From: a bacterium
GTDB taxonomy: Bacteria; Electryoneota; Electryoneia; Electryoneales; Electryoneaceae
Reading direction: 5' to 3'
Length of the DNA stretch: 64,000 nt
Assembly (NCBI GenBank): GCA_963669175.1
Contig: OY769902.1
Coordinates: 3,456,001 to 3,520,000, forward strand
Program-made: the position numbers and the translations under genes
The notes under the pieces: model-generated
Seen by the model: the letters and a program-made list of their open reading frames with translations, nothing else
Database searches by the model: none
What the model was told of the DNA's origin: nothing
Shown here: positions 49,301 through 55,850 of the stretch, piece after piece
How the letters are laid out: every line of letters begins with the position of its first letter
Position numbering within the stretch: position 1 is the first letter of the stretch

Positions 49301-49519
49301 ATCATTATCCTCAACAGTGGCGTACCTGTCAAATCCCGACATATGTTGCGCGATTCGTTGTTTGAATTCATCTGTCTTTCCACGAAGCTCATCATCAGAC
49401 AGATTCTTCAACCCTTCAAAGGCCTGGTTGATTTCATCGACCCTGGGTTGGAGCTTCTTCACCAAACGATCATGTTTGGTACCAAATACCTTCTTCAACC
49501 AATTCACTGTAAAATCCAA
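46313..49519 (-). CDS. secA: Preprotein translocase ATPase SecA
   Basis: [58 protein letters not shown] motif [14 protein letters not shown]; TTG start. Confidence 0.97.
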
Positions 49520-50040
49520 AGTTAGTTAAAAACAGACTCGACAGGAAGCGAGCAATTTTAAAGGTACTCAGGCGTATTACTCACGTCAAGCTTTTCAGTT
49601 CCTGTTTCCGTATCCTTCTTTTAATTTTCTATACCTCTTTTTGCACCAGAAACAATGCGAGCTAGATCGATATTGCCATAATCTCACAACGTGTTGTCCG
49701 GGAAATTCAGTTGAGAAGGGGTATTGCTGAAGTCGATATCATTACATCACTGAATATTGGCACAAAATAACACCAGCCAGTCAGCGACAATGATGCGTGC
49801 AGTGGTATCACAGGCCGAAGTGTTAGGTTCGTTTTTGCGAAAACCCACTCAATGAAAGCAGAAAAATTGCAGAATCCATTGAATAGTGGACTGCGGGATC
49901 AAGATGCAAGTTATTGAAATGGTTAGAACATTGTTAGAAGAAAAGGAACTCGTCCCTATTTCTTCTCGGTGAGTAGATTACTATATTTCGAACTTACGAT
50001 GCAGGCAGCTTTCATACTCTAGCACAGGCGCGCTTGATCT

Positions 50041-51210
50041 ATGTTCGTTATTGTTCTGCTCACGGCGGTGCTGATTGGTTTTGGCGCTTGGGAATTTACA
50101 GTGCACCGCAGGCGCGTGATGTCGATCCCGATTCGCATCCACGTCAACGGCACCCGTGGGAAAAGCTCAGTTACCCGCCTGATTGCCTCTGGTCTTAGAG
50201 CCGGTGGGTTCCGCACTCTGGCCAAAGTAACCGGTACTCTCCCTCGTATCATTGATGAGCGAGGAATGGAGATACCGATCATCCGGTTACATATGGTCAA
50301 CATCATCGAACAGACCAAAGTCTTCCGATTCTTCGCCAACAGGCGACCACAAGCTATTGTGATCGAGTGTATGGCTGTTCAACCGGAATACCAGTGGATC
50401 TGTGAACACCAGTTCGTCACTGCAACGCTTGGCGTGATTACCAACGCCCGCATGGACCATGTTCGTGAAATGGGACCTTCCCTTGAGAACATCGCGAACT
50501 CGCTTTCCAATACGGTCCCTGCTGGCGCCACGGCAATCACCGCAGAAAACAAACCTGATCTGTTAAAGATCATGGAAAAGCGTGCAAAGGAGAACAAGAG
50601 CGATTTTGTCGCAGTCAATAGTGATGATGTAACGGATGACGACCTTCGTCGTTTCCGGTACATTGAACATCCGGACAATGTTGCCCTTGCACTTAGGGTT
50701 TGTGACGAGCTGGGAATTGATCGTGAAACGGCCTTGAAAGGCATGGTTGAGATGCATCCTGACCCGGGTGCACTGCATGTCCATCGGGTTGAGCATGATG
50801 GGAAGAAAATGATCTTCCTGAATGCGCTAGCCGCCAACGATCCGGAATCCACTCTGATGGCGTGGAAACGAGCCCTCGAGCTATATCCCAATAGCGGGAA
50901 ACAGATATTGTTGTTGAACTCACGTGGTGACCGTTTTGACCGAAGCGTACAACTGGTTGAGATGGTTGGCAAATACATGACGTTTGACCGCATGATTTCC
51001 ATGGGCGAGAGCACAGAGATGCTTGCACCGCATTTCAAACGGTTCGGTGTTCCATCCGAGAAGATTAATCGCGTGGGACAGTTGAAACCGGACAAAGCCT
51101 GGGATGCCATCTGGAGCGAAGTCGAAGATCGCGCCTTTGTTTTCGCATTAGGTAATGCCGGTCACGGCGGCCTGGCAGTGGCAGACTTGTTTAAAGCGCG
51201 CAGGAGCTGA
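50041..51210 (+). CDS. pgsB: Poly-gamma-glutamate synthase PgsB/CapB (Mur-ligase fold)
   Basis: N-terminal TM helix; RIHVNGTRGKSSVTRLI, IECMAVQPEYQ, ITNARMDH, AANDPEST. Confidence 0.93.
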   Translation: MFVIVLLTAVLIGFGAWEFTVHRRRVMSIPIRIHVNGTRGKSSVTRLIASGLRAGGFRTLAKVTGTLPRIIDERGMEIPIIRLHMVNIIEQTKVFRFFANRRPQAIVIECMAVQPEYQWICEHQFVTATLGVITNARMDHVREMGPSLENIANSLSNTVPAGATAITAENKPDLLKIMEKRAKENKSDFVAVNSDDVTDDDLRRFRYIEHPDNVALALRVCDELGIDRETALKGMVEMHPDPGALHVHRVEHDGKKMIFLNALAANDPESTLMAWKRALELYPNSGKQILLLNSRGDRFDRSVQLVEMVGKYMTFDRMISMGESTEMLAPHFKRFGVPSEKINRVGQLKPDKAWDAIWSEVEDRAFVFALGNAGHGGLAVADLFKARRS

Positions 51211-51212
51211 GC

Positions 51213-51665
51213 ATGGTTGATGTAGCAGTCGGTCTCGGGGTAGCGTTCAGCCTGTTGTTTAACGAAATCTTCGGTGTTTCCGCCGGCGGTATCGTTGTTC
51301 CGGGTTATGTTGCGCTTCACCTGAACAACATCTGGATGCTGGTCGGCACTTTGGTCGTCAGCTTTCTTACCTTTTTCTCCGTTCGCATTATATCGCAGTT
51401 TGTGTTCATATATGGACGGCGGAGACTGGTATTGTCGATTCTCCTCGGATTCATTTTTGGTTTCCTGCTGCGTAATTACATAGCCGGTCCCATTTACGAA
51501 TCCACGGCTGTACATCTTGAGGGGATCGGGTATATTATTCCCGGTCTGATTGCTAACTGGATGGAACGCCAGGGAGTGTTGCGAACGATTTCAGCAGTAA
51601 CAACAGCTTCTGTTGTTGTTCGCCTGGCCGTTATGATTATCGGAGGAGGAAAGATCATTGCCTAG
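51213..51665 (+). CDS. pgsC: Poly-gamma-glutamate biosynthesis membrane protein PgsC/CapC
   Basis: GVSAGGIVVPGYVAL, IYGRRR, IGYIIPGLIA, RQG; 150 aa; directly after pgsB. Confidence 0.93.
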   Translation: MVDVAVGLGVAFSLLFNEIFGVSAGGIVVPGYVALHLNNIWMLVGTLVVSFLTFFSVRIISQFVFIYGRRRLVLSILLGFIFGFLLRNYIAGPIYESTAVHLEGIGYIIPGLIANWMERQGVLRTISAVTTASVVVRLAVMIIGGGKIIA

Positions 51666-52785
51666 ACGATTCCGTCCTTCGATGCGTTCACAGAGAACGC
51701 TGATCATTCTCGGGGTAGTTTCCATACTCTGTTACCTGTGGGCTGAAAACTCGCTGGTTACCCTGGAAGCCCCCCATTTCGCAGAAAAAGTCAGCGCGGC
51801 ACAGCGCATGAGCGCCATGATGGACACGTTGCGCCAGGTTCAATACGCTCGTGGTATTTTCCCGGACGAGATAAACGACCCCAACCTGACAGCGCTGATT
51901 GGTCAGCAATACACAAAGATCACAACCGACATCGGTGACCTTGAAGCCAAATGGACAGCCTTGAATCCGAACATGGCTGCTGTGATGGTTGAGTATTTCA
52001 AGGAAGCCGGCCTGGTTTCTGGTGACGTGGTTGCAGCAGGTATTACCGGATCTCTTCCGGGGATGAACCTTGCATTCTATGCAGCATGCGAGGAGCTTGG
52101 TCTGCATCCGATTGTAATCACCTCGATTGGCGCTTCGTCCTGGGGCGCTAATGACCCCAGCTTCACTTGGCTGGACATGGAACAGAGCCTGATCGAACGT
52201 GGCATGGTCAAGTTCGTTTCAGTTGCTTCTTCCACTGGTGGTGGTGAAGACCTTGGTCGGCGTCTATCCCCTGAAGGTCGTGAACTGATCCGTCAAGCTG
52301 CCGAACGCAATGAAGTTCCTTTCATTGAAGAGGCGACAGTCGAGCAGTCTGTTGAAAAACGTATACAATTATACACAGAACACTCGCAGGGCGCCCCGAT
52401 AAAATTGTATGTTAATATTGGTGGCGGACTGGCATCATTGGGAAGCGCTGTGAACGGCGACTTGATTCCGCCAGGCCTGTCACAAAGACTGCCTGTATAT
52501 AATTATCCTCGTCGTGGCGCTATTAACATGTATGCAGACAGTGGTGTCCCGGTATTGCAGATCCTGAATATTGCAGACATCGCAAAGCAGTTCGATCTCC
52601 CCCGCACACCGGAACCGTTACCGGAAGCAGGTGAAGGTCGTCTGTTCAGTGAAGAACGATACAACTTGTGGGTAACTGTTGCAGCATTCATTATTGTAAT
52701 GATTACCCTGACAGTTGTTTTATACTTTGACCGGCGGACCCAGCGGCTGAATCGGCCGGGGGTAGATCCTGATACATTGATGTGA
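51658..52785 (+). CDS. pgsW: Poly-gamma-glutamate system protein (PgsW-like)
   Basis: DPNLTALIG...ITT..G.LEAK...NPN, GSLPG.N, SIGASSWGAN, NIGG; N- and C-terminal TM helices; overlaps pgsC. Confidence 0.8.
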   Translation: MPRRFRPSMRSQRTLIILGVVSILCYLWAENSLVTLEAPHFAEKVSAAQRMSAMMDTLRQVQYARGIFPDEINDPNLTALIGQQYTKITTDIGDLEAKWTALNPNMAAVMVEYFKEAGLVSGDVVAAGITGSLPGMNLAFYAACEELGLHPIVITSIGASSWGANDPSFTWLDMEQSLIERGMVKFVSVASSTGGGEDLGRRLSPEGRELIRQAAERNEVPFIEEATVEQSVEKRIQLYTEHSQGAPIKLYVNIGGGLASLGSAVNGDLIPPGLSQRLPVYNYPRRGAINMYADSGVPVLQILNIADIAKQFDLPRTPEPLPEAGEGRLFSEERYNLWVTVAAFIIVMITLTVVLYFDRRTQRLNRPGVDPDTLM

Positions 52786-52789
52786 TGAG

Positions 52790-53743
52790 ATGACTACGCT
52801 TCCCCGCAAAAAGATGTTTGTGGTTCGTCGGCTGCATGTAATTGCGGCCGGCTTGAGCCTGTTACTGCTATCGCTGTCAATGGCGGTCGCCGCACAGTGG
52901 GATGTTATTCGCCCTGCTAAAGGCGGTAGAAGAACCGTTCTGGTGATTGAAGACAAGGAATGGGCCTACTGGCGACTGAAACCCGGTCAGAGCATGTCAT
53001 TTGATCTGCAACCAGGTGAGTACAGGGTTATTACCCGCGCTGATTTGAGTGACACGAAACGGAAAGAAAGCACCTATACTTTCCGTATTGGCATTGATGA
53101 TCCCAAAGGCCGGTTATACAGCCGTGCCACCAGCAGGGATAAACAATCCCATGCGCGTGGCAAGGATCAATCTCGCATCGGAAAAAGCCGTACTGTCTAT
53201 CTGACATCGGAAAACGGCAACCAGACCATGACGATCAGCCTTGGCAAGGAAGCGCCACGCCCTGTCTATTTCAGGGTACAGGTGGAAGCCAAAGCTTATC
53301 GTTCAGGCACTGAGTACGTCGCTGTTACACCCAGCAGCTATCGTGACGCCCATAGCATCGCTACGAACGAAGACATCAACACGTATTACGCTGTTGATGA
53401 GGAACAACGTCTGACACTGGATGTTAACGGTCCGACGACGATAAGAGTGCTGGCGCGTTTAATGCTGGATGAAAGCATGCGCGGAGAAATCAAGTTCCCG
53501 TTGCAGGTTTTCGAAGACGGCGCCTTGAAAAACACGTATTCGCTGACGACCAGTGCATCACAGGTGTCCACTCTTATGGACAGGAACGATGTGCTTCCAT
53601 CACGCGGCGAATCTTTCTTTATCGAGGTACCTCGCGGACGTCATAAATACAACTTCGTTCCACCTGAGCGCCAGTTTGAGATCATGCTTCGGTTCTTCTT
53701 GCCGGAAGATGATCTCACCAACGAGCCTACCGCAGGCAAATAA
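52790..53743 (+). CDS. Hypothetical exported protein with two similar beta-rich domains
   Basis: Signal peptide ending ...AVAA-Q; internal repeat (W.VIRP...YW.L...RVITR / Y.AVTP...YY.V...RVLAR); 4 nt after the pgsW-like stop. Confidence 0.75.
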   Translation: MTTLPRKKMFVVRRLHVIAAGLSLLLLSLSMAVAAQWDVIRPAKGGRRTVLVIEDKEWAYWRLKPGQSMSFDLQPGEYRVITRADLSDTKRKESTYTFRIGIDDPKGRLYSRATSRDKQSHARGKDQSRIGKSRTVYLTSENGNQTMTISLGKEAPRPVYFRVQVEAKAYRSGTEYVAVTPSSYRDAHSIATNEDINTYYAVDEEQRLTLDVNGPTTIRVLARLMLDESMRGEIKFPLQVFEDGALKNTYSLTTSASQVSTLMDRNDVLPSRGESFFIEVPRGRHKYNFVPPERQFEIMLRFFLPEDDLTNEPTAGK

Positions 53744-53891
53744 GCGGTATTCGTTTGTCAAGTTTGAATTTTCAAGGCCTGCATGAAGACAAAGCGGGCC
53801 TTTATTGTTTATATTAGCATTAGTGGATTGAGTCACATGGATCGATCCACTTGATACGGCACACTTTGATTGTCAGCATGGGGAGTGAACC

Positions 53892-55001
53892 ATGAAAAAG
53901 ACACGCATCCGGCACGGTTTCGCAACACTGTTGATTGGCGCATTAACCGTTTCCATGATCCTGCCAGTACAATCCATGGCGCGTGCCTGGAACTGGAAAA
54001 AGGACACTGGTTTCAGCATCACCTACACCAGCGGTTACGACAGTAACATCCTTGAGTTAAGCGATGACGATATTGACCGGTTCGAGAACAATGAACTCCC
54101 CGGCTCAACTTCGCCCTCTACCTACGATGACCTGGTTCAGAATTTCGGCGCCAAGTTTAAGATCTACTCGCCCAAATACCTGGATTTCCGGCGCACACGG
54201 CTGTTTTACACGTTCGGTTACCAGTCATTTGCCGGGAACAAATACAACGATCGCGTCAGCCACTCCCTGTTCCTGATGCAGGACATTACCCGGAAAGTGG
54301 ACCTGGTGGCGAGTTATTTCTGGATTCCACAACGGTATCTGCGTGACTATTATGATCGCGACATGGGGCATATCTATCCCTGTGAATTCACCTATCACCT
54401 GTACTCGGCAGGATTACGTTTCCAGGTTACCAAACAGATTCGCCTGGACGGCCGCTACGAAGGCTACCAGGTGTATTACAACAGGTACTTCACGGAATAC
54501 GATTCCGAATCCAATGGTTTTCGCGTTGGACTCCAGGTGAAGGTTCTGCCCAAGTTGGTCTTTGATGGTGATGTCCGGTATCGTTGGGCGGATAATGTGG
54601 GCTTCGATCAAAATGAGATCGTGGCAAACAATGCTTCTCTTCTTGACGCGGAATATGGCGATGGCAGCTACGGAGAAGAATGGTTCGAGTACGGCTTGTC
54701 CTGGGAAACCCCTGAACTCCTTAATCGCACATGGGATGTGCAGGTGACTCACAGGTTACGGCATCGTTACTACACCAGCGACATGTCACTGGAAGATGAT
54801 CCGTTCCATGCTGGACGTGAACACTTGCAGCAGCGACTGTTTCTTGATGTGAACACCAGCATCGTTTCGGGACTGAGCGGCGGCATCGCACTCGAGTATG
54901 AGTGGCGTCGTACTGACTCACCAAACGATAAGGTTCCCGTAGTGAAGGACTTTGACGCCTACAGGGCCATGTTAAACTTCACAATCGAGATTTGGGATTG
55001 A
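53892..55001 (+). CDS. Hypothetical outer-membrane beta-barrel protein
   Basis: Signal peptide; GYDSNI barrel-entry motif; Tyr/Arg-rich amphipathic strands; C-terminal LNFTIEIWD; GGGAG RBS. Confidence 0.7.
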   Translation: MKKTRIRHGFATLLIGALTVSMILPVQSMARAWNWKKDTGFSITYTSGYDSNILELSDDDIDRFENNELPGSTSPSTYDDLVQNFGAKFKIYSPKYLDFRRTRLFYTFGYQSFAGNKYNDRVSHSLFLMQDITRKVDLVASYFWIPQRYLRDYYDRDMGHIYPCEFTYHLYSAGLRFQVTKQIRLDGRYEGYQVYYNRYFTEYDSESNGFRVGLQVKVLPKLVFDGDVRYRWADNVGFDQNEIVANNASLLDAEYGDGSYGEEWFEYGLSWETPELLNRTWDVQVTHRLRHRYYTSDMSLEDDPFHAGREHLQQRLFLDVNTSIVSGLSGGIALEYEWRRTDSPNDKVPVVKDFDAYRAMLNFTIEIWD

Positions 55002-55850
55002 TTCGATCCGATAGACAGTTTTCCGGGGGACGTGCCATCTTTGGTACGTCCTCTTTTTCTTCAAAGGACTGGGTTGGTACTTTCTATCCACCAGGGATAA
55101 AAATCGACCAACTTCATCGCCCATTATGCTACTATTTTCCCTTCTATTGAGATTGACGCGACCTATTACGGTGTCCCACGTGAAAGTATGATACAGGAAT
55201 TCATCGATAAAACACCGGAAAGCTTCATCATCTCAGCCAAGTTCCCAGGTGAAATCGTCCATGCCGGCAAATCATACACTCCCGATATTGCAAAGCTGCT
55301 GATCCCTGAATACACATATGAGACGCGTGATACCTTCCTCGAACGCATGGCAAAAATTGGCCCACGACTTGGTCCTCTCCTGCTGCAGTTCCCCTACTTC
55401 TCCAAGCGGCTATATAGTAATGCTGGGCCGTTTGTGGAAAGACTGGAACAATTTCTTTCAGATCTTCCGCAGATGCCTTTCAGGTATGCAGTTGAAATCA
55501 GGAATAGAACATGGTTGACAACACGTTTTATGGATATGCTTCGTAGGTACAATGTCGCGCTGGCATTGACTGATCATCCCTGGATGCCCCATGGTGATGA
55601 AATGCGATTCGATCCTGTGACAACTGACTTTGTTTACATCCGTCTTCTTGGCGATAGAAAAGCCATTGAGGAGATTACAACTTCTTGGGATAAAGTCGTT
55701 GTGGACAATTCTGACAGGATCGAACGATGGGCAAGCCTGATCAGAAAACTGGTTGAACGGGATCTTGTGGTGTACACCTATTCCAATAACCATTATTCCG
55801 GTCATGCGCCTGCCACGACGCGACAGTTAATGGAATTGGTGGAAAGGTAA
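54998..55850 (+). pseudogene. DUF72 family protein with a one-base frameshift near the 5' end
   Basis: The frame from TTG 54998 gives IFGTSSFSSKDWVGTFYPPG; another frame continues NFIAHYATIFPSIEIDATYYGVP...AKFP...LLQFP...YIRLLG...NNHYSGHAP; the switch occurs at AAAAA 55099-55103. Confidence 0.8.
55026..55060 (+). terminator. Candidate intrinsic terminator after the pgs-associated barrel gene, overlapping the DUF72 5' coding region
   Basis: GGGGACGTGCCA-TCTT-TGGTACGTCCTC stem plus TTTTT. Confidence 0.55.

Follow-up and report, generated by a model that had tools for sequence, protein, structure and literature searches.

We analysed a 64,000-nt window from the genome of a bacterium of the phylum Electryoneota (GenBank assembly GCA_963669175.1, contig OY769902.1, positions 3,456,001 to 3,520,000 of the forward strand) and found five consecutive genes that probably form an operon for making poly-gamma-glutamate (PGA) and moving the polymer across a two-membrane envelope. 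The five open reading frames (ORFs) lie on the same strand (+) at 50041-55001 of the window and encode, in this order, PgsB, PgsC, a protein of the family TIGR04332, a secreted protein that we call ORF4 and an outer-membrane beta-barrel. The proteins are 389, 150, 375, 317 and 369 aa long, and the gaps between consecutive genes are 2 nt, an 8-nt overlap, 4 nt and 148 nt. An earlier note on this DNA had placed the five genes at the same positions, with 4 nt before ORF4 and about 150 bp before the barrel gene. Close relatives of the third and fourth proteins use starts 8 residues further in, and with these starts the gaps before the third and fourth genes become 16 and 28 nt. The host genome is a single 5.45-Mb contig with six matches to the Omp85 family, from which we conclude that the host is a diderm. 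Our data support the assignment of ORF4 and the barrel to the PGA system as its periplasmic and outer-membrane parts.

The PgsB/PgsC family polymerises glutamate, and both genes named in the earlier note were recovered above the cut-offs of their family models. PgsB (50041..51210, +), the amide ligase of PGA synthase, has an N-terminal hydrophobic segment and a Mur_ligase_M domain. It matched the equivalog model TIGR04012 with 434.1 bits (cut-off 222.7), residues 2-383 covering model positions 1-379 of 380, and was the only TIGR04012 match above cut-off in the host genome. PgsC (51213..51665, +), the small integral membrane subunit, matched TIGR04011 with 123 bits (cut-off 96.45) and PF14102 with 120.9 bits (cut-off 27; E 5e-35). 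The third gene (51658..52785, +) follows pgsC directly, and its product matched TIGR04332, 'poly-gamma-glutamate system protein', with 328 bits against a cut-off of 100. It had been described as pgsW-like; its membership of a PGA system stands, but the name PgsW was not found in print, and no PGA paper using the term 'TIGR04332' was found among open papers and preprints. In this protein a domain of ~300 aa lies between two hydrophobic segments; an Arg-rich N-terminus precedes the first of them and a basic tail follows the second. Translation is likely to start at the ATG at 51682, since close relatives are 367 aa long. Searched against PDB sequences, its profile gave no meaningful match. In the operon the TIGR04332 protein occupies the position of PgsA. 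A Pfam scan found PF09587 (CapA) in none of six locus proteins and PF01019 (CapD/GGT) nowhere in the locus, in agreement with the earlier statement that capA and capD are missing there. The sole genomic match to PF01019 lies at 3,623,139, ~113 kb away. Three genomic matches to PF09587 (G000:C1, 913191-913979, 2758801-2759511 and 3178181-3179005) are all unlinked to pgsB at 3.506 Mb; one of these three sits within a 1008-aa open frame.

ORF4 (52790..53743, +; alternative start 52814) is a secreted non-lipoprotein of tandem beta-sandwich architecture. Inspection of its N-terminus showed a signal sequence and no lipobox cysteine; its relative P0025, which starts later, is 309 aa long. The AlphaFold2 model contains two beta-sandwich domains, with a predicted local distance difference test score (pLDDT) of 83. 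A BLASTP comparison of domain 1 with domain 2 using the window protein alone gave an E of 2.3 and was superseded by a profile–profile comparison with hhalign (probability 99.6 %, E 1e-23, 129 columns), by which the two domains are homologous. The signal peptide and the two similar beta-domains that had been proposed for this protein were thereby substantiated, as was the basic character of the first. Domain 1 has a net charge of +11 in the window protein and a family median of +10, and is positive in 90 % of 79 sequences. The net charge of domain 2 is -7 in the window and +4 in the family median, and the domain contains Ser, His and Glu positions that are near-invariant. Across 137 representatives of the ORF4 family the median net charge is +13. 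In a structural search, residues 28-160 resembled modules of the carbohydrate-binding module (CBM) types CBM35/36/6, with middling scores (Z 8.2-9.7 over 103-115 residues); a CBM-type sequence match for domain 1 was not found in the PDB profile search.

At the sequence level, ORF4 belongs to a family without a name. There was no Pfam or NCBIfam match at threshold, the only sub-threshold one being DUF4340 (E 0.005), and the ORF4 profile retrieved nothing meaningful from PDB sequences. In the protein atlas it falls among unnamed 'hypothetical protein' clusters. The profile found 474 clusters in 1.84 billion representatives, mostly of ~300 aa. Two members, P0120 (429 aa) and P0127 (446 aa), carry a third, N-terminal copy of the domain and are very rich in lysine. 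Additional full-length ORF4 paralogues were seen outside the cassette in genomes of the window's own phylum (G032:C95:47742-48659, G013:C130:28587-29465 and G008:C606:132-1007).

The last gene (53892..55001, +) had been taken for a beta-barrel, and the AlphaFold2 model of its product is a barrel of 14 strands (pLDDT 88; predicted template modelling score 0.80). The N-terminus is a signal sequence without a lipobox cysteine, and most relatives terminate in W or F, the window protein having one Asp beyond the Trp. The protein thus combines the signal peptide, the closed antiparallel barrel and the aromatic C-terminal signature of outer-membrane beta-barrels. Like ORF4, it lies among unnamed 'hypothetical protein' clusters of the protein atlas and has no Pfam or NCBIfam match at threshold. 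A profile built from 23 sequences found only one unrelated chain in the PDB (E 0.28). In a structural search against a set of representatives, its top matches were CymA (Z 23.2; root mean square deviation 3.5, 279 aligned residues) and OmpG (Z 20.0; 3.5, 241 aligned), followed by three chains of Bacteroidota beta-barrel assembly machinery (BAM) complexes (Z 17.0) and FadL (16.2), and Foldseek agreed. The description of the barrel as rich in Tyr, Arg and His applies to the first two residues (Tyr 29 and Arg 26 of 339) but not to the third (His 7). On the assumption of a periplasmic mature N-terminus, short connections correspond to periplasmic turns and long connections to extracellular loops. 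With this topology, the conserved motifs fall in two putative extracellular loops, L1 (conservation 0.66 among 73 relatives) and L4 (0.79), and in strand 5 (0.63). These three are the best-conserved elements of the barrel, the remaining strands lying at 0.34-0.47.

We examined whether ORF4 and the barrel accompany the PGA genes in other genomes. Among 79 genomes of the host's own phylum, TIGR04332 was present in 77, ORF4 in 75 and the barrel in 72; in the window's genome each is single-copy. Judged by their coordinates, the barrel gene and ORF4 are no more than 700 nt apart in 70 of the 72 barrel-positive genomes, and in G070 both genes are at contig ends. Barrel-negative genomes include G046 and G056, in which a contig end truncates ORF4, G049, in which it lies on a short contig, and G068 and G075, which are 80 and 88 % complete. 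In the two genomes of genus g10, which are 92 and 94 % complete, neither the barrel nor ORF4, TIGR04332 or PgsB was found; PgsC was not searched.

The association extends beyond the phylum. An alignment of TIGR04332 proteins matched at least 563 relatives in species-representative genomes; we took the best 80 loci and searched the ORFs of all six frames with profiles. An ORF4-family gene directly followed the TIGR04332 gene in 80/80 loci and the barrel gene directly followed ORF4 in 72/80, which bears out the proposed neighbourhood of the two families and pgsBC. Six of the eight loci without a barrel (L060, L071, L072, L086, L096 and L098) end at or just past ORF4. Upstream, pgsB and pgsC were found in every locus of the set that extends far enough. 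By their labels, the carriers include Calditrichaeota, KSB1, Ignavibacteriales, Bacteroidales, Lentimicrobiaceae and Rikenellaceae as well as Cloacimonadota, Lentisphaeria, Nitrospirota, Auribacterota and others. Omp85 matches above cut-off were obtained in the window's own genome and in four other carriers; two of these are metagenome-assembled genomes labelled Clostridia, and the matches in both indicate that they, too, are diderms.

The Bacteroidales, an order in which the system is patchy, allowed us to compare genomes with and without it. In an even sample of 301 genomes, each scored for six candidates, 21 contained TIGR04332. All strong matches to the barrel (13/13) and to ORF4 (16/16) fell inside these 21 genomes, in keeping with the linkage expected from the earlier note. 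The 280 TIGR04332-negative genomes had no strong match to either protein and two marginal ones (E 7e-4 and 7.6e-5). No p-value is given for this co-occurrence because related genomes are not independent. In three genomes (G239:C187, G365:C160 and G380:C1) the barrel gene preceded the TIGR04332 gene by 3-4 kb on the same strand, with ORF4 still downstream, and the linkage therefore survives rearrangement.

Natural fusions connect the three proteins directly. Two were found among the 150 ORF4-profile clusters listed, each known from one sequence. In P0137 (693 aa), which was seen as a protein sequence only, a full TIGR04332 region is connected to a full ORF4 region by a hydrophobic helix, a short Arg-rich loop and another hydrophobic segment, in this order. 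Such a layout would be expected of a protein whose TIGR04332 domain and ORF4 part both lie in the periplasm. P0169 (977 aa) joins ORF4-type domains to a following barrel (E 3.7e-85). In locus L118 its gene comes immediately downstream of pgsB, pgsC and the TIGR04332 gene, and the 977-aa frame is open there.

From the genomic data and the predicted structures we propose the following export route. PgsB and PgsC would polymerise glutamate at the inner membrane. Under the positive-inside rule, the TIGR04332 protein would be held there by two membrane helices and would expose its large domain to the periplasm. In the periplasm, the basic domain of ORF4 could bind the polyanion, and ORF4 may connect the complex at the inner membrane with the barrel. 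At the outer membrane, the barrel is the most likely pore for exit of the chain, and its conserved, putatively extracellular loops may shape the exit. A more ambitious version of this proposal, to which we hold tentatively and with a slight leaning towards doubt, is that the TIGR04332 protein, ORF4 and the barrel constitute one continuous trans-envelope translocon for a polyamide. This translocon would represent a new class of outer-membrane polymer export. It would combine a barrel of 14 strands with a basic beta-sandwich adaptor and have no sequence relationship to any polysaccharide secretion system.

The AlgK/AlgE system of alginate export had been suggested as an analogue. The architecture supports this analogy: AlgK/AlgE, PgaA, BcsC and PelB/PelC follow a common logic of inner-membrane synthase, periplasmic partner and outer-membrane barrel encoded in one operon, and the fused layout of P0169, partner plus barrel, parallels that of PgaA and BcsC. 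The components, however, differ. The barrel has 14 strands, compared with 18 in AlgE and 16-18 in the synthase-dependent porins AlgE, PgaA, BcsC and PelB; the periplasmic partner is a tandem beta-sandwich instead of a tetratricopeptide repeat (TPR) protein; and the polymer is a polyamide. Fold scores of the barrel to BcsC (Z 13.4), PgaA (13.3) and PelB (13.0) were well under that to CymA, and a sequence relation to polysaccharide secretion porins was not found in the PDB profile search. With CymA and OmpG the barrel has the strand number and the fold in common, at 8-12 % identity and with no detectable sequence homology; these two proteins serve sugar uptake and are not part of synthase operons. 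In our view the module adds to synthase-dependent polymer secretion a variant whose two components come from protein families without a name.

Several observations weigh against the export route. The alginate porin AlgE has a strongly positive lumen, and the barrel of the window had likewise been proposed to be a cationic porin. This part of the proposal was not supported, and we set it aside: the mature barrel has a net charge of -14 (38 K+R versus 52 D+E; family median -2, range -21 to +23) and its lumen-facing charges, assigned by strand parity and hydrophobicity and not from model coordinates, are about balanced (18 K/R versus 17 D/E). With this ratio an AlgE-like positive lumen cannot be claimed. 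The linkage, too, has exceptions. In G034 of the host's phylum the barrel gene is on another contig, flanked by genes for flagellin and superoxide dismutase. The Auribacterota genome G079 (1.9 Mb, perhaps incomplete) has kept ORF4, and the barrel was not found anywhere in that genome. A barrel match was lacking in 8/21 of the TIGR04332-positive Bacteroidales, one of these cases being cut by a contig end. The 80 loci across phyla were those closest to the query alignment and do not represent a random sample. Moreover, many genomes in three families of the phylum contain a second, shorter TIGR04332 copy (open frames of ~303-376 aa), and in the four loci examined (L114, 8009-9004, -; L115, 7336-8463, +; L116, 8078-8986, -; L117, 7935-8939, +) this solitary paralogue had no pgsB, pgsC, ORF4 or barrel gene within ~8 kb. 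The TIGR04332 family therefore also occurs apart from the module.

Seven TIGR04332-positive Bacteroidales genomes in which the barrel was not found are G102, G192, G243, G250, G316, G331 and G360; in five of them ORF4 was not found either. These seven may rely on another outer-membrane protein or on one that has diverged strongly.

The strongest competitor of the export route, which we nonetheless consider unlikely, is that ORF4 and the barrel anchor PGA on the cell surface, the polymer crossing the outer membrane elsewhere. Group 1 capsules have such a capsule anchor or assembly lectin in Wzi. The conservation maximum of the barrel in the putative extracellular loops L1 and L4 would be odd for a simple pore and keeps this explanation alive; the binding-module-like folds predicted for ORF4 and the absence of a CapD-type anchoring enzyme from the locus point in the same direction. 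ORF4, however, has a signal peptide and no lipobox, and in P0137 it comes after an inner-membrane anchor, a position that puts it in the periplasm rather than at the surface. In addition, the cassette conserves no other outer-membrane candidate.

Somewhat less probable again is a structural role, in which the module would link the inner-membrane synthase to the outer membrane, or position or regulate it, while PGA remains periplasmic and serves, for instance, as an osmoprotectant or cation buffer. The fusions, which chain the TIGR04332 protein, ORF4 and the barrel together, and a lumen that is not clearly positive would suit such a tether, but a 14-stranded barrel with conserved loops is unnecessary for it, and the closest folds, CymA and OmpG, are open, wide monomeric channels. 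Those same folds belong to uptake channels, and this, together with the near-invariant Ser, His and Glu positions in domain 2 of ORF4, would fit a role in uptake or turnover, with the barrel importing glutamate or PGA fragments and ORF4 binding or trimming the polymer. We regard this role as improbable, since ORF4 has no hydrolase family match in Pfam, NCBIfam or the PDB profile search and both genes are inherited and lost together with the synthase and occur fused to its third subunit, which fits assembly better than scavenging. That ORF4 and the barrel have nothing to do with pgsBC beyond lying next to them, as the promoter-like site and stem-loop in the 148-nt spacer of the window and the unlinked barrel of G034 might suggest, is hardly credible given linkage conserved over several phyla, exclusive co-occurrence in the Bacteroidales, joint loss of four cassette genes in one genus and two fusions.

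How two-membrane cells export PGA is an open question. Fusobacterium nucleatum reportedly makes PGA. In the monoderm Bacillus systems PgsBCA(E) and CapBCA(D)(E), PgsB and PgsC are orthologous to those of the window (TIGR04012, TIGR04011), and the operon organization and membrane-bound synthesis are common to both. The window locus differs from them in having no PgsA/CapA or CapD, in carrying TIGR04332 in third position, and in two added genes for putative periplasmic and outer-membrane parts, for which a monoderm has no use. For the missing periplasmic and outer-membrane steps, ORF4 and the barrel offer two concrete candidate families.

A recent preprint (bioRxiv 10.1101/2025.11.11.687785) describes PGA-like clumps in a Cloacimonadota enrichment and gives CapB, CapC and PgsF as the typical operon of known Gram-negative PGA producers. 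The first three genes of the window are the same and in the same order as in this 'Gram-negative type' operon, the third being called PgsF there. The preprint gives three genes, and the terms 'outer membrane' and 'export' are absent from its main text; its supplementary Fig. S12 could show more. In our set, all five Cloacimonadota-labelled loci with sequence past ORF4 (L053, L091, L094, L112 and L113) contain both ORF4 and the barrel, and a sixth (L098) ends at ORF4. Among reviews, one of 2026 on bacterial surfaces treats peptide capsules, in the part accessible to us, only in monoderms, and in one of 2017 on PGA genetics the terms 'Gram-negative' and 'outer membrane' are absent. Open papers and preprints yielded no description of ORF4, of the barrel or of any outer-membrane or periplasmic PGA export protein, which is consistent with the earlier remark that its author knew of no such route described for polyglutamate. 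The five-gene cassette may serve as a genomic marker for predicting PGA producers among uncultured diderms, and the module could aid PGA production in Gram-negative hosts. If the translocon proposal is true, PGA would be a widespread and largely unrecognised exopolymer of anoxic and sedimentary habitats, made mostly by uncultured diderms.

The ORF screen of the locus took frames of at least 60 aa and left the 148-nt spacer between ORF4 and the barrel gene as the sole unassigned space for a small peptide of the PgsE/CapE kind. In most other loci this gap is much shorter. The spacer (53744-53891) folds with -42.7 kcal/mol (z -2.65) and contains a stem-loop (53774..53815, +), in which 53774-53782 pairs with 53794-53802, followed by a U-rich run. 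The 9-bp stem is retained in a relative of the same genus, where a U-G pair is replaced by C-G. The stem-loop was not called by the terminator scan and may be an internal attenuator or RNA stability element. A promoter scan found 6 sites compared with 7.0 expected from shuffles, and thus no excess. A 23-codon ORF (53784-53855) overlaps the spacer stem. An Rfam scan of 49400-55300 returned a single sub-threshold snoRNA match inside ORF4, which we judged to be due to chance.

The operon is closed by an intrinsic terminator (55025..55054, +) with a 13-bp stem containing 7 GC pairs, a 4-nt loop and a T-run, at the place where a terminator-like hairpin had been noticed before. Upstream of the operon lies secA on the opposite strand, and a DUF72 gene is located past the terminator. 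In G034, the ORF4 gene is followed (L036, 8606-10324) by a gene for a DJ-1/PfpI protein and then by one for a beta-propeller with a type IX secretion C-terminal sorting domain.

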